Notes: a model not told the origin generated them from the sequence alone. A stretch of DNA of 62,097 nt from a virus (IMGVR_UViG_3300018041_000006:1-62097); one strand, 5' to 3'. Shown: positions 613 to 57,341, counted from the stretch's first letter. Program-made: numbers and translations.

Positions 613-3288
613 TTACCAGACATAGTCCATATTTTGAATCTTTTTAATTCTATCTTTAATAGACTTTGCATAGTTCTTAACTTCTCTTTCGTAATAACTA
701 CCTTCATATCCAGCATTCTTTTCTTGTTCTGCGTTATTTGTATAGTCTACGTATCTTCTAAAGTCATCTAATAGATTTGACATTGCGTTCGAAGCATCTC
801 TTAAAGAAACACTTCTTCCTTTAGGATCTGTTCCAATAATCGGTTCACCGTATTTAGATGTTTCTTTATTAGCAATTCCATTTTTAATTTGCTCAGCAAC
901 AACATCAATGGCCTTTAAAACTTCAGCGTCTATTGGCATTTGTGCTGCTCGATTTGCAAGAATTGTGTGGTATCTGTCCTTATTTTCTTTTCTAAAATCT
1001 TTATCAGACTTGAAGGCAATTGCTCCTTTTTTAGATTGCTCTCTTTCAGTTCTTTTTGCAGATGATGAGTATCTTGCATCTAGTACGTCAAGATCTAATA
1101 CATACGCTCTGTCGGCTAATTCTGCAACTTTTGTTAGACTTGATATTCCTGAACCCCATTCATCCTGTGTACTTGATTTTGAGAATCCTATACTATCATC
1201 TCTTTTTGAAGTTGTTACTGTTGATTCACCTCGCATCCATCCCGTAGATAACCATTGATTCTTGCCATCTGTCATTGCAAGTAGTGTGTTTCCAGGAATA
1301 CTTTTTACACCATATGAATATGACTTTGCATATGGGTTTTCTTTTTCATTTGTTGTAAAGTAAAAATATACAGCTCTATTTCTTTTTTCTTTTTTAGCAG
1401 AAATTGGATCCATTTCAATAATATCAATATCTTCAATTTTATCTAGTTGAAGTTTTGACATTGAATAAAATGACTTTGCTAGATTCTTTGGCATTGATTT
1501 TGCACCTGCTAGAATAGACTGTAGCTTTGAAGACTTAAATGCTTCATTAACTGTGTTATTACTTAAAGATTGTACATATGATTTAAAAGACTCATATATG
1601 AATTTGTCCTCTTTTTTGTTTCTCTTTGATTCAAATTCTCCATTTTGAGCCATTGATAATAATGCAGTTGCTATTTTTTCAGCCTTAGCACCCTTATGTC
1701 CATAAGTTGCAACTGTTTCTCTAGCATCATCAGGTAACATGTCAGCTAATTCCCATGGATCATATTCTCCTAAAAGATCTAGTAAAATATTTTTAGCTTC
1801 TTTTTCTTCTTTACCTTCACTTACTGCTCTATCCTCTTTAATTGTTACTGGATATTTTTTACCGTCAAATTCAAATTCTTTATCTCCAGCATCTTTTGCT
1901 TTTTTAGCAGCCGCAACAAATGCTCTACCTTCTTTAATTGTTACTGGATATTTTTTACCATCAAATTCAAATTCTTTGTCTCCATCGTCTTTTGCTTTTT
2001 TAGCAGCCGCAACAAATGCTCTACCCTCTGTAGTTACTGATTCAAACTGTAAAGAATCAAGCTTAATATTCATTGAAACCATGTCCATTGGTCCTTTACC
2101 ATCTTCATAGTCTACTGTAGCCATTGATCCAGTCGGTGAAAATTCTATAATCTTAAATCTACCAGGGAATCTGATATTCTCACCATAAACGGTTTCACCT
2201 TTCTCAACAGCCTTGATAGCTTTCTTAATTTTAGGATGAATACCTTCGTTAATTGCCGATTCTTCAATATACTCAGCTAATCCATCATCACACCATCCAT
2301 AGTCACAATCACTTAGTACCTTTTCAAGGTCTTTTCTTTTACCTTGCATTGTAATTACCGGGTGACCTCCACCTGGACCATCCATCATTTTATCAGTGAT
2401 CTTAACTCTATTTTTCTTTAAGAATTTTAAGAAGTCTTTATCATCTGGATCTACTGCATCCATTTCTACACGAGCCTCACAAATCTTAGATTCGTCATAA
2501 CCATCATAGTCATCATAATAGTCTTCATCACCTCCAGTATACCATGACTGGTTTGGATCCGATGCTGCTTCTTTGGTAAAATCATGTCTTTTCCAGTTAT
2601 ATTTAGCAGTTGTTACGAGCGCTGGAAAAAGAGGTTTTTTACCTTTATCTCTTGTTTCTAGACTTCCAAATGCAATAGCAATACCGAAATCTCTTAAAGA
2701 TTTAGAAACCATTTTGATTTTTTTCGTAAGACTTTTATCTTCTAAGTCTTCTTCAGAATATCCATTCATTCTAGCAAGCAATTCATAATAGTCCATTCCT
2801 CCGAATTCTCCATAGCCTTCGTATTTACCTTCAAACCAAGAATTTCCTCTATTATCATACATCCAAACGTCAATTGTATTCTCTTTGTCAGAACCGATTT
2901 GCTCTTCAGTATCTTGTGTCATCCATGAGAATTGACCCTCTGCGATCATAAAAGATTCAGTAATTTCTTCTTCAGATTCTTCTTCATTAATATTTAATAC
3001 CGACAGCGCTCTAGACCCTATTTTTGATAGTGATACTCCATCTTCAGAAACATTAAAATATCTAGAATTCCTAGAGATCCATTTTGGGGCACTTTTTGAA
3101 AATTCAGAAACTAATTTTTCAAAATCTTCGCTTGTAATTGTTGTTGTTCCAACAGTTGACAATATTTTATTTCTTACCTTTGCTGCAAATCCAATTGTAA
3201 TTGCTGGGTGATTTTCAGTATATTGTCTTTTTACAACGATTTTCTTTGACTCGCTTAGATTGCGAGAAAATTCATTAAAATCAATCAT
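613..3288 (-). CDS. 891-aa multi-module putative internal head (poly)protein
   Basis: Leader MIDFNEF; repeated ES..[VI]xE linkers; tandem 32-aa repeat; GQFSW...YEGYGEFGG domain. Confidence 0.6.
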   Translation of the reverse strand: MIDFNEFSRNLSESKKIVVKRQYTENHPAITIGFAAKVRNKILSTVGTTTITSEDFEKLVSEFSKSAPKWISRNSRYFNVSEDGVSLSKIGSRALSVLNINEEESEEEITESFMIAEGQFSWMTQDTEEQIGSDKENTIDVWMYDNRGNSWFEGKYEGYGEFGGMDYYELLARMNGYSEEDLEDKSLTKKIKMVSKSLRDFGIAIAFGSLETRDKGKKPLFPALVTTAKYNWKRHDFTKEAASDPNQSWYTGGDEDYYDDYDGYDESKICEARVEMDAVDPDDKDFLKFLKKNRVKITDKMMDGPGGGHPVITMQGKRKDLEKVLSDCDYGWCDDGLAEYIEESAINEGIHPKIKKAIKAVEKGETVYGENIRFPGRFKIIEFSPTGSMATVDYEDGKGPMDMVSMNIKLDSLQFESVTTEGRAFVAAAKKAKDDGDKEFEFDGKKYPVTIKEGRAFVAAAKKAKDAGDKEFEFDGKKYPVTIKEDRAVSEGKEEKEAKNILLDLLGEYDPWELADMLPDDARETVATYGHKGAKAEKIATALLSMAQNGEFESKRNKKEDKFIYESFKSYVQSLSNNTVNEAFKSSKLQSILAGAKSMPKNLAKSFYSMSKLQLDKIEDIDIIEMDPISAKKEKRNRAVYFYFTTNEKENPYAKSYSYGVKSIPGNTLLAMTDGKNQWLSTGWMRGESTVTTSKRDDSIGFSKSSTQDEWGSGISSLTKVAELADRAYVLDLDVLDARYSSSAKRTEREQSKKGAIAFKSDKDFRKENKDRYHTILANRAAQMPIDAEVLKAIDVVAEQIKNGIANKETSKYGEPIIGTDPKGRSVSLRDASNAMSNLLDDFRRYVDYTNNAEQEKNAGYEGSYYEREVKNYAKSIKDRIKKIQNMDYVW
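1835..2026. repeat. Two near-identical 96-bp tandem copies encoding EGRAFVAAAKKAKDxGDKEFEFDGKKYPVTIK
   Basis: tctttaattgttactggata begins at 1835 and again at 1931. Confidence 0.95.
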
Positions 3289-3309: not shown

Positions 3310-5151
3310 TTATATATTCTTTATAAATTTTTCAAATGTTAAAAACTCCGATTCATTAGTAGACACGCTGTCTTCTAATTTTGTTTTTAGCTCATTGTAC
3401 ATTCCATGAATTTGCTTAGGAGTTAATTTTTTAAATAGCTTTTCATCGTTGTCAAGCATTGCATTTCTTACTTGAGTTGCTGAAATATTTTTACCAGTTC
3501 TTGGAATCTCGAATAGACCAAAATCATCTCTGACTCCGAGATCTTCTCTATATTCTGGTTTATCTACTTGGTATGAATAAGTTTTAAGCCTATCAGTTCC
3601 AGTACCCCAAAGTACAGGTTCATAGCCGTCTGCCCTCATTGCATTAAACATGTGGTCTATACCAGCAGTTGGAAGAACATAAACTTTTTCAATAGGATAC
3701 TTTGACTTTAATTGATTAAGCATTGCAATTTGAGTTTCCTCGTCATAAGGTCTCTTAAATGCATCCTCTGGTTTTTTAGTCTTTGATTTAATTAAAAATA
3801 TAACTACTGGATAACCATTTTGTTTGTTAATAGTTTCTATTACCTTAGCATGTCCCAATGTAAATGGCTGAAAGCGACCAACAAACATATTTACTGGCTT
3901 TTTACCTTGTTTAGGGTAACTAACAGTCAGTGCTTCAGTAATAGGACTTACTTGATGTTTTAGGTTTTCGTGATTTAAAAATGTTTTAAAGCTCATGAGA
4001 TTTGATTCATTGTTTTGAAGCATTACAACTGACTCTATTTTATCAACGATCTCGTTAATTTGAGACATTAAGTCATTGTTAATAATTTCAGTTTCTTTAA
4101 GTCTTCTTTTTCTAAAAGAACCTAGCGCAATTTTATATAATTCTTCTAGCACCTGGTTAGCTACTAACTCTATTGTTTTTTCATTAGTGATAAACTTAGT
4201 GTTTAGTGAAAAACTTGGTGAGTCAGAAAATTCAGCAGACTCAAATTTAACTCCAATATATTTGGTTGCGTTTTTATCAACATATGCATTAAATAATTGA
4301 GAGATTAGTTCAATATATCTTTTGTCAGAATCATTTTCGTTTAATTCTAGGTTTTCAATATCATATGTTGTAAAATATTCAACTAAATCTAGTAGTGCTA
4401 TCTGGTATATGTCAGATGGTTTTCTGTTTTCTTTTATAAGATCTTCTCCTTGACATATCTTAAAACTCTTTACACTTTTACCTTCGAAAAAATTAATAAT
4501 AATTGAATCAATCTCACCATCTAAATCTTCATTAAGAGCAGTTGAATTTAATCCTCTATTAAATATAGAATACATTTTTCTAGAAAAGCTTAGAGACTCA
4601 AACTGTGCATCGAAATCAGTATCGCTTAAATTTAGTAATTTTGTAATCTCATCCTTTTGATAATCAGAAAGTTTTCCTTGGTGTAAAATTTGAGGTCTTT
4701 GTACTTCTAGGATGTCAGCCCACTTTTCTAAGATTTTAGGATCTCTGATTACTTTCTTTATTAAAGTAGGGTCATTAGGACTCATTACTTGTATATGTGA
4801 AAGCATCAAATTATTTTTAGGTATTCTGTCGTACTTTATATTGACTGTTTTTGAATCGGTCATATAATCAAATCCAAATCTCCAGTCTAAAGGCATTTGC
4901 TCTTTAATATGATCGGGCTGTGATTCAAAATAGGTCACTGCATTTTCATAGTACTTTACAATTGTTCTATCAACCTTATCCATTGGTGATTTATTTCCAC
5001 TCTTATGATAATTATATCCTTTATCAGTTTTTTGAACATGGAAAGAAGACGCTTGTATCTTTTCTGCAACAACGCAGGTTAGATTTAGCATTTTTTGAAA
5101 ATCATTAATATTGCTTTCGCTATAATATGTTCTTAAATTTTGTAGTGCCAT
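3310..5151 (-). CDS. Fusion of a degenerate ligase-like N-terminal domain and a C-terminal HxGH cytidylyltransferase/NMNAT-superfamily domain
   Basis: FVGRFQPFTLGH (HIGH-type motif), GTDR, ISATQVR; N-terminal VAEKIQASS resembles ligase motif I (EKxDG) without the DG. Confidence 0.75.
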   Translation of the reverse strand: MALQNLRTYYSESNINDFQKMLNLTCVVAEKIQASSFHVQKTDKGYNYHKSGNKSPMDKVDRTIVKYYENAVTYFESQPDHIKEQMPLDWRFGFDYMTDSKTVNIKYDRIPKNNLMLSHIQVMSPNDPTLIKKVIRDPKILEKWADILEVQRPQILHQGKLSDYQKDEITKLLNLSDTDFDAQFESLSFSRKMYSIFNRGLNSTALNEDLDGEIDSIIINFFEGKSVKSFKICQGEDLIKENRKPSDIYQIALLDLVEYFTTYDIENLELNENDSDKRYIELISQLFNAYVDKNATKYIGVKFESAEFSDSPSFSLNTKFITNEKTIELVANQVLEELYKIALGSFRKRRLKETEIINNDLMSQINEIVDKIESVVMLQNNESNLMSFKTFLNHENLKHQVSPITEALTVSYPKQGKKPVNMFVGRFQPFTLGHAKVIETINKQNGYPVVIFLIKSKTKKPEDAFKRPYDEETQIAMLNQLKSKYPIEKVYVLPTAGIDHMFNAMRADGYEPVLWGTGTDRLKTYSYQVDKPEYREDLGVRDDFGLFEIPRTGKNISATQVRNAMLDNDEKLFKKLTPKQIHGMYNELKTKLEDSVSTNESEFLTFEKFIKNI

Positions 5152-5159
5152 AGTTTCTT

Positions 5160-5474
5160 TTAATTAGGCCAAATCATTACAGTTCCTGCATCATGCCATT
5201 CACTATACCAACCTCTTTTATTAAGTTCTTTTTCCCACCTTTTGTCTACCCCAAATATTCTATTTTTGTGGTCCATTGAATAGTAGTCATAAATTCTTTT
5301 ACCTTTGTACTCGTCTCCATTTTCTCCAGAAATCCATATTCCACCAGGAGAGCCATTGAATTCTTCAGATTGACTTACAAAATCAAGATATTGTTCTAAC
5401 CATACCATCATTTCATCCCTATCTATAGATTTAGCTTCATTTACAAATTGTTCGAATATCATTATGTGTTTCAT
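5160..5474 (-). CDS. Small protein with capsid-targeting-like leader
   Basis: The second ATG (5474) gives MKHIMIFEQFVNEA and avoids overlap with the upstream gene. Confidence 0.75.
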   Translation of the reverse strand: MKHIMIFEQFVNEAKSIDRDEMMVWLEQYLDFVSQSEEFNGSPGGIWISGENGDEYKGKRIYDYYSMDHKNRIFGVDKRWEKELNKRGWYSEWHDAGTVMIWPN

Positions 5475-5475
5475 T

Positions 5476-6756
5476 TTACCTACCATATTTTATTATTCCT
5501 AAAAGTTGATTAAATGGAGCAAAAGTTCCAGTTAGCTTATAGGTTTTTCCTTTGTATATAAATACTAGTCCTTCGGAAGGAACTACTGATTCGATTCCTC
5601 CAATTCTTTCTAGTCTTGTGAGTTCAGTTTCTACTCTTTTAATTTGATCTATGTCTCCTCCTTTTTTAATCTTTGCAGCTTCTTCTCTAAAATGTTTATG
5701 TAATCTTTGCATTTCTTCACTTGGATTTGCTGCTACAAAATTAGAGGCATTCTTTAAAATAATAGATCCTAATTCTAAGAAAAGATCTTCAAAAGGTCTA
5801 ATGTTTTCTTTGTATTTCTTTTTAACATCTTCTTTATCAAACTTTTTAATTGCAGCAAGTTGTGTCTTATCTACTAATTTACCAATTGATCGTAGATCTA
5901 AAGTTTGCTTATCGCCATATGCCCATCTTAAAAGAAGACCTTCTTTAACATCTTGTGTTAATTCTCCAAAATATTTTTCGATTTGTTCTCTCCACCAAGC
6001 CTCATGGTATCTAGATACTTCATCAGAATCTTCAAGATTGTATTGTTTTCTTAAAGCTTCAATTTTTTTAAAAAACTTATCTTTATTCTCTTCAAAGTTA
6101 ATATCTTTTGCTAGCTTTATAATTTGTGGAGGAATAATCGTAAATGTTTTCCCAATATTTGCCTGTACTTTAGACAAAGCATCGGCAACTGCCTTTGCTG
6201 AACCCTTAACATCACCAATAATATTACCTTCACCGTCAGTCTCTTTAATGCCGTGAAATTGAATTACATCTCGGTCATACCTAATTACATTTGGATTTTT
6301 CGAGTAAATCAGCTCCATATTCATAAAGTTTTTACCATTGTTAAAAACTTCTTGATCTTTTGTTGAAAGCTTTATTAGTTGATATGCTAAATCCTCTGCT
6401 GCAAATTGAAAAGTATCTTGTACTCCTTTACTTGAGTGTCCTTCAAACTTTTCCTTAAACTCCGTAAGATTCATTGGAAATTTTAAACCTCCTTTATTTC
6501 TAGCAAATTTTACTTCACCATCTTGAATTGTAGCAAACAGATTTTGACCATCTGTCTTTTCAGTAGCTTCTTCTTCAAAATTTAATTCACCTTGCAGACC
6601 AACTTCAACTAATTTTTTAAAATCTCCAAATGTTAATGACTTATCATCAAATGGATGGCTCATATGGCCTGCAGCTCCGCCTTCTAATACAAGATCATCG
6701 CTGTTAAACCCTGATGCTTTCTCATTTAAAAATTCTTGGTATGTAAATAATTTCAT
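5476..6756 (-). CDS. Covalent nucleotidyltransferase (RNA-ligase-like) protein of the GGAAGHMxHPFD phage family
   Basis: TEKTDGQN (motif I), NMELIY (III), SEGLVF (IV), YKLTG (V); leader MKLFTYQEFLNE. Confidence 0.6.
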   Translation of the reverse strand: MKLFTYQEFLNEKASGFNSDDLVLEGGAAGHMSHPFDDKSLTFGDFKKLVEVGLQGELNFEEEATEKTDGQNLFATIQDGEVKFARNKGGLKFPMNLTEFKEKFEGHSSKGVQDTFQFAAEDLAYQLIKLSTKDQEVFNNGKNFMNMELIYSKNPNVIRYDRDVIQFHGIKETDGEGNIIGDVKGSAKAVADALSKVQANIGKTFTIIPPQIIKLAKDINFEENKDKFFKKIEALRKQYNLEDSDEVSRYHEAWWREQIEKYFGELTQDVKEGLLLRWAYGDKQTLDLRSIGKLVDKTQLAAIKKFDKEDVKKKYKENIRPFEDLFLELGSIILKNASNFVAANPSEEMQRLHKHFREEAAKIKKGGDIDQIKRVETELTRLERIGGIESVVPSEGLVFIYKGKTYKLTGTFAPFNQLLGIIKYGR

Positions 6757-6770
6757 CTTATTACTTATTA

Positions 6771-8609
6771 TTATCCTAGCGATGAGGTCAACATTCCTAC
6801 TGCTGCTCCGTAATCACCATCTGTTTTTGATAGTATACCATCAACCACTTCTTGGGCTTTACCTTCGTCAAAGTCTTCGCCAAATGCTTTTTGAAGAACT
6901 GTAAATGCATATTCTTTAAATTCTTCGTCAGACTTAATTTCTCCTTCATTTACAGTTTCAGTTGATTCGAATGCAAACTCTGAATTATTACCTTTTGAAA
7001 ACTCATCATGTTGATCTGCGGGTACAATTGCTAGCATACCAACGTCCTTTTTTCTAACTTTTAAATCTGTAATAGCTTTTTGTTTAGCTTTCCATAAAGA
7101 TTCTGCTTCAAATTCATGCTTTTTACCATTATGGAATGCATAAAATCTAGTTTCATTAGTTACAGATTCTCCTAATGCAAATAAGAAATCTCTATCTAAT
7201 TCTTCACCATATCTATCGTCAAAGATTTCTTCTAAATCTTTTACAGTAACTCTACCTTTATAATCATTTTCAATATCGTCAATTACATCCATATGATCGC
7301 TTTGTAGAATGTCTTCGCCATACGCTGAATCCCATGCGTCAATAATGTCGCTTGCTTTATATTTCTTGGCTTCATTTGTTACAGATTCTCCAGCAAATTC
7401 TTTCGCATTTTCTTTATCTTCTTTATCCACATTTTTTACTGGATATTCTTCATCTCCAACTTTAAAAGTTTTATCTCCTTTAGCGATTGCCTTTGCCCTA
7501 GCCGCACCAAATTCATTACCTTCTTTTACTCTAGATTCTAGAATTTGTAAACTATCAAATAACGTATTAAAAGTGTTAATTAATTCTTGAGCAATTTTAG
7601 TATCTCCAATTTGGTCTAAGTACAATGCTGTACCTTCTACAATTGCAAGTCCACTCCAACTAGCAGCATTAGAAATTCTACTTGATTCATTATACTCTAA
7701 TTCATCGGTAAGTTTTCTAGAAGATATGTTAACTTCAATTCCTCCTAAACTTTCAACTGGAACAACAATAGATCCTAAAGATCCTTTAATTCTTCTTGAA
7801 CAAGCTGCTGCTTCTCTATGAAAATTTGCGTCAACCATCGCTGCGTTAAAAATAACTTTTATTGCTCCTCGAAGAGCATCTCCACCATCATATTTTTTAA
7901 GATCTAAAATTGCAGGGTATCTTTTATTGAAAATATGATTATATTGAGTTGCTACTTTTTTTGCATCTCTTTTACCCGTTACAATTACTGCCTCATTTAC
8001 ACTGTATGATTCAAAAGCAGGTCTTAGATTATCATCTTCATAGGTATCTGCCATATACCATTTATTATCTCTTTCGTCGTATAGATATATGAATTCTGCC
8101 CAAGACTGTTTAGCATCTCCTATAAAAGTTCTAATTGCTCCAGCATTACCCGTTAATGGATCTTCACCGTCATTATAGTAGTTAATTGAGTTTGGGTCTG
8201 AATCAAGTCCAGAACCTGCTCCATTTTTTAAAACAGTGTAGATGTTTTTCTTTTTTGATCCACTATATCCTTTCTTTATTAAGGGTAACATGTTTTCTGG
8301 GTATCCATCGTAGTGCATATATACTGCTTCGATGTCTCCTTTTCTATCTATTTTTCCAAAAAATGATCTTGTTCCTTCTTCTACTAGTGAAAGTGATTCA
8401 TTTAAATCAGTGCCTTCTAGTCTTGAAAAGAATTCTGTTCTTTTTTCTTCTTCTAGTTCAGAAACTTTAGTTACTCCATATTCTGATAATAGATCTCTAA
8501 AACTCCTAGCCGATTCTTCTCTAACCTGATTGTTTTTAGATTCTAGCTCGGCAGCTGCCTTTTCGTTTTTAATTTTAGTGTATTCGTCAAACGATCGTAA
8601 TGTATTCAT
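6771..8609 (-). CDS. 612-aa multi-module putative internal head (poly)protein
   Basis: Leader MNTLRSFDEY; six ES..VxE linkers; YMHYDGYP domain; one copy of the EGxxF..A..K.F...YPV module. Confidence 0.6.
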   Translation of the reverse strand: MNTLRSFDEYTKIKNEKAAAELESKNNQVREESARSFRDLLSEYGVTKVSELEEEKRTEFFSRLEGTDLNESLSLVEEGTRSFFGKIDRKGDIEAVYMHYDGYPENMLPLIKKGYSGSKKKNIYTVLKNGAGSGLDSDPNSINYYNDGEDPLTGNAGAIRTFIGDAKQSWAEFIYLYDERDNKWYMADTYEDDNLRPAFESYSVNEAVIVTGKRDAKKVATQYNHIFNKRYPAILDLKKYDGGDALRGAIKVIFNAAMVDANFHREAAACSRRIKGSLGSIVVPVESLGGIEVNISSRKLTDELEYNESSRISNAASWSGLAIVEGTALYLDQIGDTKIAQELINTFNTLFDSLQILESRVKEGNEFGAARAKAIAKGDKTFKVGDEEYPVKNVDKEDKENAKEFAGESVTNEAKKYKASDIIDAWDSAYGEDILQSDHMDVIDDIENDYKGRVTVKDLEEIFDDRYGEELDRDFLFALGESVTNETRFYAFHNGKKHEFEAESLWKAKQKAITDLKVRKKDVGMLAIVPADQHDEFSKGNNSEFAFESTETVNEGEIKSDEEFKEYAFTVLQKAFGEDFDEGKAQEVVDGILSKTDGDYGAAVGMLTSSLG

Positions 8610-8646: not shown

Positions 8647-10155
8647 TTATATATCTCCATCAAATTTAACCTTTTTGATGTCATATTTAAACTTTTGTTC
8701 TTTATAAATTTTTTGTCTAGCCTTTGAGTGCCTCATTAAATAATTATCCCAGTCCGGTGAAGTTATATCATCGACAAAATCTATAATCGTAACACTGTCT
8801 TTTGATTCATGCTGTCTAAGTCCTCTACCAATAGACTGCCTAATAATTACTTCTGATTTAAACGATTCCGTAAAGAAGATATTGTGAATCTTTTTAATTG
8901 AAATACCGGTAGAGAAGGTACCATAGCTGGCAACGATAACAACTTCATCTCCTGCTTCCATTTTCTTTTTATATTCTTCGCGTATGTCTTTATCGGTTCC
9001 ACCATCAACATAATAAATCGTTTTATCGCTCTCCTGTCTAAGCTTTTCGTATATTTTTTGGCCATGCTCAATGCGGTGGAAAAGTACAAGGGAATTGCCA
9101 CGTACTCTGGAAATAATGTTGCAAATAAAGTTAAGGCGGCCTGGTGAATTAATAATATAATTTTGTTCAAATTTAAATACGTCTTTATTTTCATATTTGT
9201 TATGTGCCATTTCGCGAAATGCCTCTTTTGCACCGTCAGGAGCATAATCCATTTCAATAACTTTTACGTTACATTTTGCAATATGTCCTTCATTCTGAAG
9301 AAAATTTGCGCTTACTTCAGTAATAAGAGGTCCGGTATATGCCATTAACGTTAGCCTATCGAGAGTTCCTGATTTTGGAATGGTTCCAGAAAGACCATAT
9401 CTATATTCTGCATTTTTACATTTTGATAAAATTGTTTTAATAGATTGAGATTTTGCTTTATGTGTCTCATCGATAATTACAGCGTCAAATTGGTCAAAAT
9501 ATTCATTTTTCTTTTTAATTAGTGATTGATATGTCCCAATTACTACATTCCGACCTGCTCTAATTGTTTGACCGCTATAAATTTGCTGTATTTTTATATT
9601 TACTTGATTTTTGTAATTATAATCCATAAAGTCTTCGCTTGCTTGTATTACAAGTGAAACGTTTGGGACAATAAATAAAATCTTTTCGGCTTTTTGTTTT
9701 TCTAGGATATATGCAACTGTTAAAAAAGAAATTAACGTCTTACCTGCAGAGGTCGCAAGCTCTGAAAGACATTTTCTAAATTTTAAAATATTAAATGCTG
9801 CTTCTATTTGGTAATCGCGAGGTGTAATCTCTGAATCTTTAAAAAAGTTTAGAACCCATTCTTCAAATCCATCCGGGGTAATTTCTTTATCAAATAGTCT
9901 AGAAATTCCATTAATTTTAAGTTCATATCCATAATCTTTACATATGTCCATAACTTCTTTCCATAATCCGGCTGGAATCCACTTATCATCTTTTACATAA
10001 GAAATATAACCATCCCACACTCCTTTTTTGACAAGTGGATTAAATCTCCACGAGTCAATTCTTTTTGTTAGTGAAATATTCAACTGTTCTAGTTCTAGTG
10101 AAGTTGCCTCATCTATCCTTAGTAGTTGATTGTTTTCGGTTAAACTGAGCTCCAT
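8647..10155 (-). CDS. uvsW: UvsW-like SF2 DNA helicase
   Basis: PRDYQ, ATSAGKT, IIDETH, GLSGT, QSIGRGLR; WDG in the N-terminal domain; adjacent to uvsY. Confidence 0.92.
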   Translation of the reverse strand: MELSLTENNQLLRIDEATSLELEQLNISLTKRIDSWRFNPLVKKGVWDGYISYVKDDKWIPAGLWKEVMDICKDYGYELKINGISRLFDKEITPDGFEEWVLNFFKDSEITPRDYQIEAAFNILKFRKCLSELATSAGKTLISFLTVAYILEKQKAEKILFIVPNVSLVIQASEDFMDYNYKNQVNIKIQQIYSGQTIRAGRNVVIGTYQSLIKKKNEYFDQFDAVIIDETHKAKSQSIKTILSKCKNAEYRYGLSGTIPKSGTLDRLTLMAYTGPLITEVSANFLQNEGHIAKCNVKVIEMDYAPDGAKEAFREMAHNKYENKDVFKFEQNYIINSPGRLNFICNIISRVRGNSLVLFHRIEHGQKIYEKLRQESDKTIYYVDGGTDKDIREEYKKKMEAGDEVVIVASYGTFSTGISIKKIHNIFFTESFKSEVIIRQSIGRGLRQHESKDSVTIIDFVDDITSPDWDNYLMRHSKARQKIYKEQKFKYDIKKVKFDGDI

Positions 10156-13739: not shown

Positions 13740-14120
13740 TTACATGTTTTTTCCAAGAGCAGCGCCTAACGCAGCACCTACTAATCTTGAAGTTAAAAGG
13801 TCATAGAATACTCCTTTTTCAATACCTAAAACTTTTGCTACTAATTTACCAACTGATTTTCCAAGAGCAAATCCAGCAAGCCCTCCAAAAATAGATCCAA
13901 GTAGACCCTCATTAGTTAACTCATCATTAAATCTATTAATATCTACAATACCATCTTCATTGGTATATTCTAGCATAAATTCATCTAATGCTGCATCTAC
14001 TTTCTCCTCTAACTCTGGGCTCCATTCTTCTTGTAAACCTTCTGTTAAAATTCTTAGATCGTCTTCAGTAACTGACTGCTCTGCTAAGTATTCGTTAAAT
14101 GTTCTAATGTCCTTTCTCAT
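13740..14120 (-). CDS. Small protein with capsid-targeting-like leader and glycine-zipper hydrophobic C-terminus
   Basis: MRKDIRTFNEYLAE; LTNE|GLLGSIFGGLAGFALG...VGAALGAALG. Confidence 0.65.
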   Translation of the reverse strand: MRKDIRTFNEYLAEQSVTEDDLRILTEGLQEEWSPELEEKVDAALDEFMLEYTNEDGIVDINRFNDELTNEGLLGSIFGGLAGFALGKSVGKLVAKVLGIEKGVFYDLLTSRLVGAALGAALGKNM

Positions 14121-51413: not shown

Positions 51414-53159
51414 TTATTTTATAGTTTTAATACGTTCTAAAAATGATGGTGGAAAAAGCTCCGATTTATTTATCAAAGAAAGAAAGCAAGCATCTAGAAT
51501 ATAAGTAATAGCCCAGTCTTCTTCATTTCTAACACTTCTCCCAACACCTTGCATAATAGTTATGCCAGTTTTCCAATCATACCAATTTGGCATTGTATTC
51601 ATTTTTGCTTTAATTAATGGATCTCCAATATTAGGATATGGTACTTTAAAAAATACTTGAAATCGGCTAATATCGTCTTTTAGGTCTAATCCCTCAAGCA
51701 ATGACGGTCCCATGAAAATTGCATCTTCTTTTTGTTTAAACAGATTCAAAAGATCATTTTTTTCTTTTGAATTTTCATAATCCATTAAACGAAATGCGTG
51801 CTTACTATTTTGTTTAATATACCTTGTAAACTCATAAGATCCTGTATGAATAATACCGCGCTGTCCTTTATGCTTTTCTATTATTTTATCTAATAATTTT
51901 ATTACTTTAGGCAAACTTGTTTCCTTTTCACGGCGGGAAAGCTTATGCTTATTAATAAACACAACTGGTGATTTATCATAATTAAAGGCATTATCAAGTC
52001 TAATAAATTTAGCACCTTTAATCCCCATAACCTTTGCAAATTCTCTAGGCCCTCCAATAGTAGCACTCATAAAAACCTTAAACCCTGCCTGTTCGTGTAA
52101 ATACTTTTGAATCATTATAGATTCTTCAGTACACATAAATTTTACTTCTTCGCTATCTTGATTCCACACCATAGATTCAACACCAACTTCAGAAATTAGT
52201 TTAGTATAATCGTCAATTTTACAATGAATATCTTTAATCCTATCAAATCTCCCGAACGCTGTTTTCCAGGTAGGTGTTAATTGCTTTTCAGTAGTTTGAC
52301 CAAAAATACGCTTAGTCATTTGTTCAGCAGGAGCCTTAACTGCGTTAAATTGAACTAATATTTTTTGTAGTTCTTTTAGTTTAGAAAACAAAACATTTCT
52401 ATCTTGAACCCGGATTAAATCACCAATTAAATCATTAACATATGCCTTGCTAATATTTGGAGAAGGAAGGCCCTGCTTAATTAAAAACTTAGATTGGTTA
52501 TTTAAAAGGTCGGGAAGGAAATTATCTATACGAGGAGAAAAATGATTCTGTACAATATCATCTATTTTATGGGCCTCATCAAAGAACGTAAAATCTCTCT
52601 TCTTAAATGGAATCGGCCGCTCAGCTTCTTCCATTTTAGGAGCTACATAATTTCTCTGTAGTAGCCAAAATGCATAGTTTAATATTGTAACTGGGGAATC
52701 AATTGCTCTAAGCCTAAGTTGAATATAATCACAAGTCTTAGAACAGTCTAATTTTGCAAGTGCCTGATCGTATCCCATATTTTTCATACGGCATTCGCCT
52801 AATGAAAATTTAAGACCATTTACATGACAATCGTAATTATCAATACCTTTGATTGAAGGCCATCTTAGTTTTAATCTATAAATATCAGATTCATATTGAT
52901 CTTGTAGAGAAAGATCAGATGTAATTAGGTATCCTCGCTTTCCCATCTCTTTTAAGATCCAAGAACACCACATAGCGATAATGGATTTACCAGTACCTGT
53001 AGGTGCATCAATCACCACAGTTTGATTCGAATCCTCGATGTATGATTCAATAATGGCTTCTATTGTTTCCCTCTGACCCCTTCTAAATGTAAACCCAGTG
53101 CCAAATACTTCTTTCTCTAGACCTTCGTCAATAATTTCTTTTAGTGGCCGTTCCAACAT
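51414..53159 (-). CDS. DinG/XPD-family helicase with Fe-S cysteines
   Basis: RRGQ, APTGTGKS, KGIDNYDC..C..C..C, DEAH, MSAT, EGLDL, KVPYP, QGVGRSVR. Confidence 0.9.
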   Translation of the reverse strand: MLERPLKEIIDEGLEKEVFGTGFTFRRGQRETIEAIIESYIEDSNQTVVIDAPTGTGKSIIAMWCSWILKEMGKRGYLITSDLSLQDQYESDIYRLKLRWPSIKGIDNYDCHVNGLKFSLGECRMKNMGYDQALAKLDCSKTCDYIQLRLRAIDSPVTILNYAFWLLQRNYVAPKMEEAERPIPFKKRDFTFFDEAHKIDDIVQNHFSPRIDNFLPDLLNNQSKFLIKQGLPSPNISKAYVNDLIGDLIRVQDRNVLFSKLKELQKILVQFNAVKAPAEQMTKRIFGQTTEKQLTPTWKTAFGRFDRIKDIHCKIDDYTKLISEVGVESMVWNQDSEEVKFMCTEESIMIQKYLHEQAGFKVFMSATIGGPREFAKVMGIKGAKFIRLDNAFNYDKSPVVFINKHKLSRREKETSLPKVIKLLDKIIEKHKGQRGIIHTGSYEFTRYIKQNSKHAFRLMDYENSKEKNDLLNLFKQKEDAIFMGPSLLEGLDLKDDISRFQVFFKVPYPNIGDPLIKAKMNTMPNWYDWKTGITIMQGVGRSVRNEEDWAITYILDACFLSLINKSELFPPSFLERIKTIK

Positions 53160-53647
53160 ATCACTTGCTCTACTTTAATATTAGCTTTTTGTAAAAGTTC
53201 AACACCACTCATGTCTCGGTAATCTTCAGAGTAGTACACTCGATTAATACCTGCCTGAATGATCAGTTTAGCACAGTCAAAGCAAGGTGCAGTTGTTGTA
53301 TATAAATCAGCGCCATCGGATGTCATAGTAGACTTAGCTAATTTAGTAATAGCATTCGACTCGGCATGTAAAACTTCTTGTTTTGTAACTCTTTTTGAAC
53401 AGCATCCATTATCACACTCATATCCTTTATCCATCAATGTAATTGCATGGTCAGGATTATCATAGTACCTGATTTGATCCTCTTCGCATGTGTTATCAAA
53501 TCCTCTTGGAGTTCCATTATAACCAAATGAAACTAGCTGTTCGTCCTTAACAATAACGCAGCCTACCTTTCTGCGATTAGCATAAGATAGTTTCGCAAAT
53601 TGATATGCGGTTTGCATGTAAATTTTTTCAATAGGTATTCTAGGCAT
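53141..53647 (-). CDS. dCMP deaminase
   Basis: KVGCVIV, GYNGTP, HAESNA, PCFDC. Confidence 0.93.
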   Translation of the reverse strand: MPRIPIEKIYMQTAYQFAKLSYANRRKVGCVIVKDEQLVSFGYNGTPRGFDNTCEEDQIRYYDNPDHAITLMDKGYECDNGCCSKRVTKQEVLHAESNAITKLAKSTMTSDGADLYTTTAPCFDCAKLIIQAGINRVYYSEDYRDMSGVELLQKANIKVEQVICWNGH

Positions 53648-53714: not shown

Positions 53715-54257
53715 TTACTCTTCTCCTACTGTATCTTCTGGACTTCTTCCAGCTGCCCATGCTTCTTTAGCCTCATCAATCTTCTTGCAGTAAGCCTCTT
53801 TAAGACTTTCACAAGCAGCTTCAAATGCTTCTAGAGTCATTTCTTCTCCTTTGACTTCAGAATGAGCATCTTCATTAGCCTTAGTAGCTAGAGCAGCAAC
53901 TAGAGCTGCATTTTCTTTCATGTATGATTCTAAAGTGTGATCTTCATAGTCGTCATTGTGGTATCCAACTGCTTCGGTTTTACAGCTTTCTCCATAAATT
54001 TCAGAAAGCATTTCTGAAACAGTTTTAGTTTCTTCAACTTCTTCAGTTTCTTCAACTTCTTCGTCAGATTCTTCAACTTCTTCAGTTTCTTCAGTTTCTT
54101 CGTCAGATTCTTCAGCTACTTCAATGTCTTCAGGAGTTTCTTCAACTTCATCCTCAAGATCTTCAACCTCGCCTCTATCTACGATGTCTTGTTCGATTTC
54201 TTCAGAACGGTCCGCTTCTTGGACGTATTGTTCAAATGATAAGATTTTCTTTGCCAT
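53715..54257 (-). CDS. Highly acidic protein with capsid-targeting-like leader (prohead core/internal protein candidate)
   Basis: MAKKILSFEQYVQE; EE[TSV] repeats. Confidence 0.65.
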   Translation of the reverse strand: MAKKILSFEQYVQEADRSEEIEQDIVDRGEVEDLEDEVEETPEDIEVAEESDEETEETEEVEESDEEVEETEEVEETKTVSEMLSEIYGESCKTEAVGYHNDDYEDHTLESYMKENAALVAALATKANEDAHSEVKGEEMTLEAFEAACESLKEAYCKKIDEAKEAWAAGRSPEDTVGEE

Positions 54258-54298: not shown

Positions 54299-54604
54299 TT
54301 AATCTAATAATATTTTTAGTGTTAGTTCCGTAGTTCCTTTTATAATTCTATGGATAACTCCTTCAGGAATAAAAATACTGCAGTTTTTTTCTAGTTTAAC
54401 TGGAAACTCGTTATCAAATTGAAACTTCCAATCACTTTCATTAAGAGCTATTACAGTCCTATCTTCATTATCCCAATGCCATTTATATAAATGCTCTGGA
54501 TAGCTAGGATCAAAATGTCTAATAATATAACCATCGTAACGCTCTTCGGTGAAAGGTTTGCGTTGGTCATTTATCATATCAATCATTTCTTCATATGTTA
54601 CCAT
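54299..54604 (-). CDS. Cupin-fold small protein
   Basis: WHWD...IFIPEGVIHRIIKG; start 54604 is coupled to the upstream stop. Confidence 0.65.
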   Translation of the reverse strand: MVTYEEMIDMINDQRKPFTEERYDGYIIRHFDPSYPEHLYKWHWDNEDRTVIALNESDWKFQFDNEFPVKLEKNCSIFIPEGVIHRIIKGTTELTLKILLD

Positions 54605-55137
54605 GGTTGATCTGATTTTAAACCTAGTTGTTTTCCAAATAGAGTTGGACCATAACATGCCCAAAATCCTGTTTTAGAAGGATCCATTTTCTTTTGTAGA
54701 TCGCATTGATGGCGGGCCCAAAAGCTTGCTGCCCTACCAGGATCATCGTTCTTAATTGTTAAGTTAGGATCTCCCCATTCAATTTTAGTCGCAAGTATAT
54801 TACCCTCTTTATCAGTCCTACCGCTGTTATGGTATACTATAAATTTTTTACTACCTCCTTTTTCAGGGGAATCAAGTTTTACTTTAATTGTATTTCCTCC
54901 TCTAGGTTTATAGATAGCAGGCTTTCCAACCTCTAAGTTTTTTGCCATCCAGCCTGAAGGACCTTTAAGAATTACATTACCCTTATCCCAATATTCTTTA
55001 ACTTCTTCAAAAAGCTCGGCATACTTTTCACTACCAAGTCTAAAAAATGAATTAGTTAAATCTAAACCTTCATCAATATGCGCTTTTAGTTCTGGTGAAA
55101 CGTTTTCCCAATCTTCAAATGTCTTTATAAACTTCAT
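54598..55137 (-). CDS. Protein with leader and a viral SFxARHxC...FWAC domain
   Basis: MKFIKTFEDW; KKFIVY..WGDP..SFWARHQCD..GFWAC. Confidence 0.65.
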   Translation of the reverse strand: MKFIKTFEDWENVSPELKAHIDEGLDLTNSFFRLGSEKYAELFEEVKEYWDKGNVILKGPSGWMAKNLEVGKPAIYKPRGGNTIKVKLDSPEKGGSKKFIVYHNSGRTDKEGNILATKIEWGDPNLTIKNDDPGRAASFWARHQCDLQKKMDPSKTGFWACYGPTLFGKQLGLKSDQPW

Positions 55138-55140
55138 ATC

Positions 55141-55428
55141 TTACTTTTCTAAAAGGTCTTTTCGATCTAGTTGTTTATAAACCTCTTTACGTGTTTTTTC
55201 CATCTTTTCAGCATATTCTGGATCTTCGTTCCTGTTAAATACAACCTGTTGTGTTAATGAACCACTGATTGCTTTTAAATCTTTTTTACGGGTTTTAATT
55301 AACCATGCTGCCAAATCTTTAGGTGAAAGGTCTCTAAATCTTCCTTCAGCATCTGGAAAATCTGAATCTTGCCATTTTGGAGAATTTTCAGACACGAATT
55401 GTTCAAAGTATCCAATAAATTTCATCAT
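55141..55428 (-). CDS. Small protein with capsid-targeting-like leader
   Basis: MMKFIGYFEQFVSE; ATGA overlap. Confidence 0.7.
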   Translation of the reverse strand: MMKFIGYFEQFVSENSPKWQDSDFPDAEGRFRDLSPKDLAAWLIKTRKKDLKAISGSLTQQVVFNRNEDPEYAEKMEKTRKEVYKQLDRKDLLEK

Positions 55429-56369
55429 GACGGTCTGTTTTTATCTTTAGCATAAGGCTGAGAATTATCTTGTATCCATCTCTTGCCTAGCGGATTTTGA
55501 ACGGGTGTTCTTAAATGTCTATTGATTTGTTTTTCAATTTCATTAAAAAGATCTTGATTGTCATATGATGAGTTATCAACAATTAGCAACCTATCTGCAC
55601 CAAAAAGTTTTTGAAATTTACCTAAGTTATATTGAACATCATTCCACATTTTTTCAACAATGGCATCAGGTAGTTTGCGTGCTCTATTTCTATTTCTTTC
55701 AAGAGCAACTTCAAGCGATGTATTTACGAATATCATGTACGTATCGTATCCTAAGTCTTGATACAATTTTCTTTTAGACTCAATTTTTTCAAAATCTTTA
55801 CCAGTACCGTCAATAACTTGGCCTAATCTACCACTTATGTAATTAGATTGCATCTTTCTAGTAACCTCCTTAGCTTTATTCCTAACCTTCATGACCTCTG
55901 CCCATACTTCAGTATCTTTAGCGTATTGCGCTAGTTTACCAGCATCATATCCAGCATCTTTAAGTTTCTTTTCAAAAGCATTGTCGTTATTAACTAATTT
56001 TAAACCAGTTGCATAAGAAACTGAAGAGAGTGCTTTTTTAGGAAAATCAAATAATTCTGTAGCAACGTAAGATTTTCCAGAGCCAGGGCCTCCTGCCATA
56101 AAAAAAGCTTTAAGTATTCCTGGATCATTTACGCCTTCATTAATTTCAGACTCTGATATAGCTCCTTTCTGATTAAACATAGATCTATTTACAGTTATGA
56201 CCCCAGAATCATCTTGTAGTTTTATAACATATTCATCTACATCAACTACTGTGTATTCTTGACCATAGTATAGTACTTTAGTATCAAGCTTAATCGCTTT
56301 AAAATCGTCCTTGCTTATTTTTTCTCCGTATTTCTTTACAAAGTCTTCAAATAGCTTAATATATTTCAT
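55425..56369 (-). CDS. P-loop kinase (zeta-toxin/AAA_33/PNK-like) with leader and an SH3-like N-terminal module
   Basis: AGGPGSGKS, VIDGTG, MIFVNTSLEVALERNRNR; leader MKYIKLFEDF; linker ISESEINE|G. Confidence 0.8.
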   Translation of the reverse strand: MKYIKLFEDFVKKYGEKISKDDFKAIKLDTKVLYYGQEYTVVDVDEYVIKLQDDSGVITVNRSMFNQKGAISESEINEGVNDPGILKAFFMAGGPGSGKSYVATELFDFPKKALSSVSYATGLKLVNNDNAFEKKLKDAGYDAGKLAQYAKDTEVWAEVMKVRNKAKEVTRKMQSNYISGRLGQVIDGTGKDFEKIESKRKLYQDLGYDTYMIFVNTSLEVALERNRNRARKLPDAIVEKMWNDVQYNLGKFQKLFGADRLLIVDNSSYDNQDLFNEIEKQINRHLRTPVQNPLGKRWIQDNSQPYAKDKNRPS

Positions 56370-56388: not shown

Positions 56389-56700
56389 TTAATTAAAAAA
56401 GTGTCGATCCCAGTCTCTAAGTAGATTCTTAGCCCTTCCTCCATTGAAAACCTTGTTAAGAAGATACTGTACCTCTTTTCTTAATAATTTAGCTTGATCT
56501 TCAGTTGACCATTCTGCTTTAATTCTTGTCTCACGATCCGGATCTAGAATTACCTTAATTCCAGCCTTCTCAAGCTCTTCTCTTCTTTCGTCAGTAAAAT
56601 GCTTTTCAATAGAACCATAATAATCGGGTAAATATGCCGACCCGCTCGGTTTATGTTTCTTTTCGTTGACGAATTTTTCGAACAGTTTTATGTGTTTCAT
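56389..56700 (-). CDS. Small protein with capsid-targeting-like leader
   Basis: MKHIKLFEKFVNE. Confidence 0.7.
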   Translation of the reverse strand: MKHIKLFEKFVNEKKHKPSGSAYLPDYYGSIEKHFTDERREELEKAGIKVILDPDRETRIKAEWSTEDQAKLLRKEVQYLLNKVFNGGRAKNLLRDWDRHFFN

Positions 56701-57341
56701 TATGCTCTTTTAATATTTTCTGCCGGAATTGTTTCATATGAAACTGCTGATCTGGCTTCTTTTGGCATCAAAGGATCTTCCCATAAATTTAAACCCTTCG
56801 TGTCAATCTCTAAAACAACAGGATCCTGTATATCAAATAAATCTTGAACCATCTTAACTCCTTTTTTAGATCCTACAACAAATGCAGCGTTGTATGTTTG
56901 TTCAGTGTTTGAGTCTCCGACCGAAGAACCAAATTGATCTGAATGAGCAGATGCATTTCTAGGCTCTAGTCCATTAGTTAAAATAGATTCAACATTTGCC
57001 GATGCTGCAACATGATACGCCTTTCTTAATTTAGAAGGATATACTGTAAATATAAAACTAATGCCGTTCCCCATATAATACCCTACGCTCGTCTTCACTG
57101 CCATCATATCTCCATCTTTAGCAATCTTTTTAATTGAATTGATTGCCTTTTGCATCTTTGGAGGTATAACCTTAGTTTGATTAGGTAAATCTATACTTAA
57201 CGTAGTACCTGATCCGCTAACTTCATAGCCTTCTCCTTCTAAAAACTTTCTAACTTTTTCTTGTGTTGAAATAGGATCTGCAGCCTCGCTTACATTCTGC
57301 ATCGAATCCCATTCTTCAAATAATTTTACATGTTTATTCAT
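56700..57341 (-). CDS. Protein with leader and C-terminal ADP-ribosyltransferase (Tpt1/KptA NAD-lobe-like) domain
   Basis: AYHVA..NVESILTNGLEPR...PVVLEIDT...ETIPAENI. Confidence 0.6.
   Translation of the reverse strand: MNKHVKLFEEWDSMQNVSEAADPISTQEKVRKFLEGEGYEVSGSGTTLSIDLPNQTKVIPPKMQKAINSIKKIAKDGDMMAVKTSVGYYMGNGISFIFTVYPSKLRKAYHVAASANVESILTNGLEPRNASAHSDQFGSSVGDSNTEQTYNAAFVVGSKKGVKMVQDLFDIQDPVVLEIDTKGLNLWEDPLMPKEARSAVSYETIPAENIKRA

Follow-up and report, generated by a model that had tools for sequence, protein, structure and literature searches.

RNA ligases are central to the escape of phages from host defences that cut tRNA, and they have become workhorse reagents. Among RNA-repair systems, T4 Pnkp with Rnl1 in tRNA repair and the Trl1 protein rely on a P-loop kinase together with an enzyme of the RNA-ligase fold; to our knowledge, no described RNA-repair system uses a transferase resembling nicotinamide mononucleotide (NMN) adenylyltransferases (NMNATs). 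Here, we analyzed a 62,097-nucleotide (nt) fragment of the IMG/VR virus record IMGVR_UViG_3300018041_000006 (CheckV completeness 20%; referred to as the window), in which two minus-strand genes, p426 (5476-6756; 426 aa) and p613 (3310-5151; 613 aa), bring such a transferase together with two ligase-like domains. The listing of open reading frames (ORFs) returned both genes at exactly the positions given in an earlier note on this DNA. Our findings suggest that p426 and p613 represent, in split form, a conserved module specific to phages, which would transfer nucleotidyl groups to nucleic-acid ends, with the repair of RNA breaks as its likeliest role, a reading to which we give about an even chance.

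p426 carries an intact and highly conserved set of ligase-type motifs

The earlier note had described p426 as holding intact motifs EKTDG, EL, EGLV and K along with a His-rich GHMSHPFD segment, and every one of these was found at its place in the p426 translation. Motif I reads EKTDG (residues 66-70, with K67), motif III NMELIY (with E148) and motif IV SEGLVF (residues 394-399, with E395-G396); in motif V, K404 and K407 are both present, K407 being the conserved motif V lysine. The His-rich segment LEGGAAGHMSHPFD (residues 23-36; 6649..6690, minus strand) lies within the N-terminal motif VLEGGAAGHMSHPFD (residues 22-36) and opens the p426 domain. In an alignment of 18 sequences with 36-86% identity to p426, residues E66, K67, D69, G70, R86, E148, H168, E395, G396 and K407 were invariant. 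Conservation was also counted across the 150 best cluster representatives of the p426 family at 50% identity (hereafter the 150 representatives). K67, D69, G70, R86 and E148 were each kept in 148 of these, the remaining two being gaps at K67, D69 and G70, while E395 was kept in 149 and both G396 and K407 in all 150. Within the His-rich segment, G27 (144/150), H31 (145/150), H34 (144/150) and P35 (135/150) were conserved. As the motifs are invariant in the 18-sequence alignment and nearly so among the 150 representatives, they reflect more than chance.

Searches with sequence models placed p426 in no named family. Neither PHROGs nor NCBIfam gave a match, and Pfam at E <= 0.1 returned only two chance-level matches. 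Against PDB sequences, p426 as a single sequence matched nothing, and its family profile yielded chance hits only (e.g. ribosomal protein eS6). Models of the named RNA ligase families (PF09414 RNA_ligase, PF09511 RNA_lig_T4_1; Rnl1, Rnl2, Rnl3, Rnl5) likewise did not recognize the protein. The Pfam domain DUF6267 (PF19782) is assigned to 23-24% of the members of the Atlas look-alike clusters of p426; its model matched none of 18 p426-family members (A1), and a six-frame search at E <= 1 gave nothing in the window, in three relatives or in the phage LR756500.1, with the control genomes also remaining without a match.

The p426 family itself is large: of 7,442 candidates in 90%-identity clusters, 2,381 proteins pass E <= 1e-3, and at 50% identity there are 1,865 representatives, 530 of which fall below 1e-30. 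A survey of 185,579 prokaryotic species (one genome each) returned nine loci, all on contigs of 1-23 kb, and eight of the nine were labelled as metagenome-assembled genomes. The Atlas look-alike clusters are 100% viral, and the family appears to be restricted to viruses.

The predicted fold of p426 is closest to RNA ligases

An AlphaFold2 model of p426, based on the 18-sequence alignment, reached a predicted local distance difference test (pLDDT) score of 82.9 and a predicted template modelling score of 0.79. In this model the motifs fall on strands and follow the canonical order I, III, IIIa, IV and V, with E148 on strand 143-150, E395-G396 on strand 396-401 and K407 on strand 404-408. An insertion of some 175 residues, helical throughout (216-390; 5587..6111, minus strand; model helices 221-385), separates motifs IIIa and IV; for this insertion the fold searches matched nothing specific. 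Correspondingly, the ligase matches span model residues 28-426 yet align only about 180-200 core residues. No OB domain follows motif V in the model.

Among PDB structures, the top Foldseek matches of p426 were all RNA ligases, if weak ones (best E 5.4e-3). When the model was aligned to these matches with VIA-align, the highest score was obtained for NgrRnl (Z 9.8, 182 residues aligned), followed by Trl1-LIG (9.1), REL1 (8.8), Rnl1 (8.7) and Rnl2 (8.4), and DNA ligases did not exceed Z 7.3. An unfiltered scan of 48,161 PDB chains gave a similar picture: ranks 1-13 were all polynucleotide ligases or carried ligase annotations, with RNA ligases first (NgrRnl Z 9.4, REL1 8.8, Trl1 8.5, Rnl2 8.4, Rnl1 7.9). 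The entry at rank 10, 3qwu, is a 'putative' and unverified DNA ligase, and among the DNA ligases the African swine fever virus (ASFV) ligase scored Z 7.2 and Pmar-Lig 6.9. On the level of the model, we regard the fold and the active site of p426 as established, and the preference for RNA as a lead. Motifs and model together suggest that p426, an active-looking stand-alone protein, belongs to an unnamed family of covalent nucleotidyltransferases that is virus-only and has a predicted RNA-ligase fold.

p613 joins an Rnl2-like domain to a HIGH-superfamily nucleotidyltransferase

The p613 protein can be divided into three regions, all encoded on the minus strand: an Rnl2-type nucleotidyltransferase domain with a partly eroded active site (residues 1-238; 4438..5151), a helical region with a low-confidence linker, as delimited by model secondary structure and pLDDT (residues 239-411; 3919..4437), and a HIGH-superfamily, NMNAT-like nucleotidyltransferase that is closest to archaeal and NadM-type NMN adenylyltransferases (residues 412-602; 3346..3918). 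The AlphaFold model of p613 has a pLDDT of 73. Its residues 1-235 superposed on residues 6-229 of T4 Rnl2 with a VIA Z score of 12.8 (root-mean-square deviation 3.4 Å, 188 residues aligned), and Foldseek found the same structure at E 4.8e-8; NgrRnl, Trl1-LIG, REL1 and Rnl1 followed at Z 10.7-11.9. The match to the ligase fold is clearer for this domain than for p426. As residues 1-235 match T4 Rnl2, the N-terminal domain does have the ligase fold that the earlier note had ascribed to it.

The active site of this domain departs from that of a complete ligase. AEKIQASS (residues 29-36) is motif I-like, IDSIII (residues 214-219) motif IV-like and KSFKI (residues 228-232) motif V-like. Within EKIQA, the lysine K31 is kept and the glycine of KxxG is replaced by alanine; in motif IV, the EG of EGxxxK reads DS (DSIII). 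Aligned by eye with Rnl2, VVAEKIQASSF parallels VAREKIHGTNF, and FGFD, DSIIIN and KSFK correspond to FGEF, EGYVLK and KCK. In this alignment K31 falls on K35, which we take to be the nucleophile of Rnl2; E99, E204, K225 and K227 are presumably the essential residues of the T4 enzyme. K31 is invariant in 17 marine p613 sequences, and one subclade (L083) reads EKIQG, a complete KxxG. In the homologue of LR756500.1, the position of K31 is occupied by N, and in four aligned megaphage homologues by D or N; in the motif III-like FGF(D/E)Y, these distant proteins have Q instead of the acidic residue. The megaphage homologues are stand-alone Rnl2-like proteins of about 440-450 aa, encoded at approximately 3.9-5.3 kb of the respective loci in phages of 630-735 kb (LR756501.1, LR756502.1, LR756504.1 and LR745206.1; L085-L088). 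They have lost the motif I lysine, since E(D/N)(I/V)QGSK stands in place of EKIQA. The term 'degenerate', used for this domain in the earlier note, therefore fits in part: it agrees with EKIQA, with DS and with the loss of the lysine in distant relatives, but not with the invariance of K31 in the marine clade or with EKIQG in one subclade. To judge from these residues, the domain is partly eroded in the window, and its distant homologues are clearly inactive as classic ligases.

The two ligase-fold domains are not detectable paralogues, because BLASTP of p613 against p426 returned nothing (best E 0.086) and hhalign of the two family alignments gave no match. Comparison of the p613 family with T4 Rnl2 by hhalign produced a spurious match of the C-terminal domain only, and hidden Markov models (HMMs) of the p613 N-terminal domain found no copy in the 150 representatives, the best E value of 0.008 being noise.

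Within the linker region, in which the stand-alone forms of the N-terminal domain (about 420 aa) end, a tag-like MSFKTFLNHE lies just ahead of the HIGH domain. This domain carries GRFQPFTLGH (residues 425-434, with TLGH at 431-434) and ISATQVR (residues 555-561). Residues 422-562 matched Pfam PF01467 (CTP_transf_like) at E 1.3e-8, with 35.5 bits where the cut-off is 21, and TIGR00125 scored 40.3 against a cut-off of 27.7, in line with the fusion of an HxGH nucleotidyltransferase to a ligase-like domain noticed before. The first His of HxGH is Thr in p613, a TxGH variant shared by phosphopantetheine adenylyltransferases. The best PDB sequence matches were NadM and archaeal NMNAT (2qjo, 1f9a), with GRFQPFTLGH aligned to GRFQPFHKGH and ISATQVR to SSTAIR or SGTEVR; in structure, the domain reached VIA Z scores of 9-10.7 to cytidylyltransferases, NMNAT and phosphopantetheine adenylyltransferase. 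The scores against the NMNAT equivalog models of NCBIfam stayed below their cut-offs (TIGR01527, 34.9 vs 181.2 bits; NF002243, 35.7 vs 127; NadM NF0037xx, 26.5 vs 409). As they are so far below these cut-offs, the p613 C-terminal domain is NMNAT-like rather than a recognized NMNAT.

p426 and the HIGH domain form the stable pair

A p426 homologue is located directly upstream of a p613 homologue in all of 80 related viral loci, which count as one lineage because the whole gene order is shared. In LR756500.1, a distant 462-kb phage whose proteins are 33-34% identical, both homologues are also adjacent and in the same order. With the ligase fold present in the p613 N-terminal domain and the genes co-occurring in relatives, as the earlier note had anticipated, the proposed pairing of the two genes stands.

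To follow the gene context in a sister clade, 15 loci were taken from a set of 80: six with about 80% identity, one with 100%, L126, L134, L148 and five of a group at about 48%. In nine of these, a gene of its own (about 200 aa) encodes the HIGH domain, in every case upstream of a stand-alone gene for the N-terminal domain (about 420-437 aa). The separate HIGH gene follows p426 in eight of the nine loci, and in two it overlaps the p426 stop by 4 nt. The HIGH domain also occurs within p426-family proteins: a narrow HMM found it in 33 of the 150 representatives and an iterated jackhmmer search in 113, the latter figure coming from a method that can drift on a small set and was controlled only by counting the G(R)FQP...H signature (104/113). 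In 103 of the 113 the order is HIGH-then-p426, in four it is p426-then-HIGH, and six carry a kinase in addition. Pfam CTP_transf_like was detected in 7 of 16 proteins of relatives scanned. These seven include a 915-aa ORF of LR756508.1 and the 639-aa protein WWT39297.1, an HxGH-p426 fusion from Microcystis phage Mel-JY01, the one cultured phage that came up as a carrier. In two phage records, p426 is fused to HxGH and the Rnl2-like domain is missing; conversely, five megaphage records with a homologue of that domain gave no p426 match (tblastn, E <= 1e-5), and no p426-like ORF was found within 4 kb of the homologue in the four megaphage records fetched. The p613 N-terminal domain and p426 are thus not always together. 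The stable pair is p426 plus HIGH, often accompanied by the Rnl2-like domain and the kinase, and from fusion, fission and adjacency we infer that the p426 and HIGH domains work together.

A related HxGH domain was also seen in gp189, annotated as 'cytidyltransferase', of Synechococcus phage ACG-2014f_Syn7803C7 (NC_047712.1 132682-140633, L195; E 2.3e-15), which also has an N-terminal tag, SFLTFLTE, similar to that of p426 (see below). HMM searches of ACG-2014f gp185, gp189 and gp190 returned no p426-like or p613 N-terminal-like domain, and no tie to cultured cyanophages was established.

The kinase found in some of the fusions has a counterpart in the window, a tagged (see below) P-loop kinase of 314 aa (55425..56369, minus strand) that matches AAA_33 and Zeta_toxin in Pfam and, weakly, a PHROG annotated as polynucleotide kinase (E 2.7e-6). 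It is 44% and 42% identical to the N-terminal kinase domains of two fusion proteins (P0247, E 5e-60, and P0281, E 5e-57), and kinase, HxGH and p426 are found in one polypeptide in 6 of the 150 representatives. By this similarity, the window kinase is orthologous to the kinase domain fused to HxGH and p426 in other phages.

Kinase and HIGH domain may also be read in terms of nicotinamide adenine dinucleotide (NAD+). The HIGH domain would then be a true NMN adenylyltransferase which, together with a kinase acting on nicotinamide riboside in the manner of NadR, would rebuild NAD+ against NAD-depleting defences; the ligase domains might use NAD+ as AMP donor, with the released NMN being recycled, or be just loosely associated. 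GRFQPF(H/T)xGH is the signature of archaeal and NadM-type NMNATs, the top PDB and NCBIfam matches of the HIGH domain are all NMNAT or NadM, and 25 of the fused HIGH domains read exactly GRFQPFHKGH. One relative (G003; L102, 134398-135177) carries a NAPRTase/Nampt-like gene (527-aa ORF, E 9.7e-34), and its sole HIGH-family gene is the p613 homologue. Furthermore, section 3.4.8 of PMC7824862 describes fusions of kinase and HIGH domains for NAD salvage in jumbo phages. The equivalog score of 34.9 against 181.2 bits argues against a genuine NMNAT, however, and no NAPRTase was seen in four of the five relatives, at a record completeness of 52-76%. The window kinase matches AAA_33, Zeta_toxin and polynucleotide kinase but not the NadR-type kinase family, which we take to be AAA_28, and we know of no NAD-dependent RNA ligase. 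As this reading also leaves unexplained why a fully conserved ligase-fold domain is fused to HIGH in 113 of the 150 representatives, we consider it unlikely.

p426 starts with a putative capsid-targeting tag

The first residues of p426 form a tag, MKLFTYQEFLNEK (6718..6756, minus strand), which resembles the 10-residue T4 capsid-targeting sequence and ends in an L-x-E site; its start, MKLFTYQEFLNE, compares with MKTYQEFIAE at the opening of T4 IPII and IPIII. The stretch is of low pLDDT in the model. As described in section 2.6 of PMC9026906, the first ten residues of the T4 proteins are a capsid-targeting sequence that is cut off by the head protease. A strict pattern, [FY]x[EDQ][FY][ILV]x[ED] within the first 20 residues, was present in 7 of the 58 window ORFs, compared to a mean of 0.025 in shuffled sequences (never more than one). 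These ORFs are located at 3-545, 5160-5486, 5476-6756 (p426), 13740-14120, 53715-54257, 55141-55428 and 60219-60758. Looser patterns raised the number to about 13, including the kinase. The tags are of the type MK(H)IKLFEQFVxE; the relaxed-tagged ORFs are those at 54598-55137, 55425-56369 (the kinase), 56389-56700, 56700-57341, 57357-58061 and 6771-8609. The tagged genes are concentrated at both ends of the window. Synonymous codon differences among the tags place the signal at the level of the protein. A tag stands ahead of the p426 domain in just 2 of 140 fused relatives, and as the fused forms mostly go without it, the tag is a separate N-terminal module.

A head protease candidate, a gp21-type Peptidase_S77 domain, was detected in all four larger relatives (G001-G004; L110-L113) and not in the 62-kb window. 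In all four the domain resides inside unusually long open frames of 662-831 aa. p613 did not match the strict pattern and showed only relaxed, internal or C-terminal look-alikes. The earlier view that the module is delivered from the virion is thus supported indirectly for p426, through its T4-like tag, but not for p613, which has no strict tag. By analogy to T4, the tag suggests that p426 is loaded into the capsid and injected; as it is common to at least seven ORFs of the window, it could also have another purpose.

In another reading, the module may AMPylate a host protein or make a dinucleotide or dinucleoside polyphosphate that disturbs host signalling, as an injected effector comparable to the domains of polyvalent proteins. 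One long relative (P0365) adds a Tox-ART-HYD1 domain (E 3.1e-5, equal to the cut-off), other long relatives show weak, sub-threshold ParB_N and metallopeptidase matches, and injected polyvalent proteins have been described (PMC5512222). In the passages considered, that survey names neither an RNA ligase nor a HIGH domain among polyvalent domains, however, and the full set of ligase motifs, with motifs IV and V, is conserved in the p426 family. Residues of motifs IV and V serve the polynucleotide steps of ligation. In our view, a non-polynucleotide target is very improbable.

The genes lie beside replication genes of a large marine phage

The source of the window is an uncultured large marine phage. 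Its large size follows from its relatives, which reach up to 212 kb (the largest at 76% CheckV completeness). All 58 non-nested window ORFs of at least 60 aa are located on the minus strand, as are all window genes named below. The p426 and p613 genes neighbour uvsW, primase-like and gp32-like replication genes; on one side they are flanked by genes for a 612-aa protein with a relaxed-pattern tag (6771-8609) and a UvsW-type helicase (8647-10155), on the other by a gene for an 891-aa protein (613-3288).

This setting could point to a function at DNA ends, in which injected p426 would seal nicks or join ends of the incoming phage DNA, or would adenylylate DNA 5' ends together with the HIGH domain. 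Apart from the neighbouring replication genes, such a function would agree with the capsid-targeting-like tag on p426 and with the presence of the ASFV ligase and Pmar-Lig among the fold matches. RNA ligases ranked above DNA ligases in every fold search, however, an OB domain after motif V is absent from the p426 model, and three of the five larger relatives encode a canonical ATP-dependent DNA ligase. We regard a role at DNA ends as quite improbable. The simpler proposal that p426 is the DNA ligase of the phage was rejected, given the PF01068 DNA ligase elsewhere in these three relatives; an NAD-dependent LigA was found in none of the five.

The short gene between p426 and p613 encodes p108 (5160-5486; 108 aa), a tagged ORF without a family match in the Pfam and PHROG scans, whose likely start is the internal MKHIMIFEQFVNE. 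Of the 80 related loci, two (L008, L073) gave a near-full tblastn match to p108 (query 2-107) in the space separating the p426 and p613 homologues, and two more (L006, L007) a short N-terminal match at the same position; in one (L058), the match was elsewhere. As it is matched at this position in few of the 80 loci, p108 looks like a recent insertion.

In T4 (NC_000866 108636-114440, L084), rnlB, which encodes Rnl2, and uvsW are about 3 kb apart, and here the ligase-like genes adjoin a uvsW homologue. This closeness may be an echo of an ancestral gene order or a coincidence. Other genes recognized in the window encode a UvdE UV endonuclease (58588-59502; E 2.3e-61), a dCMP deaminase (53141-53647), a DNA helicase (51414-53159; phrog_2488) and a protein matching phrog_850, annotated as 'RNA-binding protein' (61072-62085).

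Discussion

In the reading that we prefer, the module would be a kit that repairs broken RNA, for example tRNA that defence nucleases of the host have cleaved. Phosphorylation of 5'-OH ends would fall to the kinase and their sealing to p426, with the HIGH domain supplying or transferring the adenylyl group and the Rnl2-like domain of p613 acting as a substrate-binding or step-3 partner; p426, and perhaps the kit, would be carried in the capsid. We rank RNA repair or adenylyl transfer first because the nearest folds are RNA ligases, the kinase partner resembles polynucleotide kinase and RNA repair follows a counter-defence logic of phages (PMC7824862, section 3.4.9). The NAD-centred reading comes second, followed by a function at DNA ends and, finally, a non-polynucleotide target.

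Several observations weigh against RNA repair. Its main weaknesses are the missing healing phosphoesterase and the unexplained HIGH domain: Pfam scans of 16 window ORFs and 16 proteins of relatives, none of them a search aimed at such an enzyme, showed no enzyme that heals 2',3'-cyclic-phosphate or 3'-phosphate ends, and we know of no role in RNA repair for a HIGH-family transferase. The NAPRTase/Nampt-like gene in one of five relatives, taken with the NMNAT-like signature, speaks for a role in NAD metabolism. No tRNA genes were found when the window was scanned for them, the kinase is fused in just 6 of the 150 representatives and lies 49 kb away in the window, and the absence of a strict N-terminal tag from p613 gives no indication of joint packaging. 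On the side of the assignments, no sequence method ties p426 or the p613 N-terminal domain to any ligase family. The fold scores of p426 are moderate, with Z 9.4-9.8 where 7-8 is typical for unmatched models, and so is its best Foldseek E value. Likewise, the 80 syntenic loci, as a single lineage, are not independent of each other, and the count of fused HIGH domains shares the possible drift of the iterated search.

A more specific pathway would account for the HIGH domain by dividing ligation between two enzymes. Here, HIGH would move AMP from ATP onto the 5'-phosphate, giving A(5')pp(5')N-RNA, or would make a private, NAD-like AMP donor, and the ligase-fold domains would finish the joint; loaded into the capsid and injected, the enzymes would act as a first-minute counter to RNA-cutting defences. 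Rnl2-like homologues that lack the lysine would still be useful in such a pathway, as only the final step would be needed from them. We consider it a long shot; if true, it would make sense of the fusion of HIGH with ligase domains in different phages. Depending on which reading holds, the module may turn out to use a new chemistry of ligation, to connect NAD metabolism with the repair of nucleic acids or to serve as a new kind of counter-defence kit that is injected.

The p426 family is a very large family with a predicted ligase fold, apparently virus-only, invisible to Pfam, PHROGs and NCBIfam, and with a fully conserved active site. A search of one library of papers returned nothing on DUF6267, on Mel-JY01 or on a fusion of a phage RNA ligase with an NMNAT. 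Two surveys of the Aravind group (PMC7824862, PMC5512222) mention no pairing of ligase and HIGH domains in the passages considered, and their supplements may list it.

Compared to T4 RNA ligase 2 (gp24.1, RnlB; 2hvq, 2hvr, 1s68), the p613 N-terminal domain superposes on the nucleotidyltransferase domain of the enzyme, and p426 also matches the Rnl2/REL1 family (Z 8.4-8.8). In sequence, T4 Rnl2 and p613 share no similarity detectable by hhalign or Pfam; p613 differs in the Ala of motif I and the DS of motif IV, and its distant homologues in the loss of the lysine. Unlike p613, T4 Rnl2 has no C-terminal HIGH nucleotidyltransferase.

The best structural matches of p426 are NgrRnl, a nick-sealing ligase of the Rnl5 type (5cot; Z 9.4-9.8 over about 182 residues), and the ligase domain of Trl1 (6n67, 9r3w; Z 8.5-9.1), with which it shares the motif order I, III, IIIa, IV, V on the same strands. 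Trl1 likewise pairs its ligase with a P-loop polynucleotide kinase. Unlike either of them, p426 has motif IIIa and motif IV set apart by about 175 inserted helical residues, and its N-terminal GGAxGHMxHPF segment is not known from the Rnl5 or Trl1 families. No N-terminal domain of the Rnl5 type is apparent in p426, and its regular partner is a HIGH nucleotidyltransferase instead of a cyclic phosphodiesterase.

With T4 Pnkp and Rnl1, the module would share the logic of combining a phage P-loop kinase with an RNA-ligase-fold enzyme in tRNA repair. The p426 system differs in that no phosphatase or healing domain was found in it and in the rarity of the kinase fusion, and the T4 system has no counterpart to the HIGH domain. 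That domain, in turn, has GRFQPFxxGH and ISxTxxR in common with archaeal and NadM-type NMN adenylyltransferases (1f9a, 1ej2, 2qjo) and with phage NadM/NadR-like enzymes. Those enzymes have Nudix or NadR-type kinase partners, whereas HIGH domains of the p613 type are joined to ligase-fold domains and score far below the NMNAT cut-offs. Finally, the putative tag of p426 ends in (I/L)-x-E like the capsid-targeting sequences of T4 IPII and IPIII. Taken together, motifs and models suggest that p426 and p613 form a new variant among systems of the RNA-ligase type, one whose obligatory partner is unusual.

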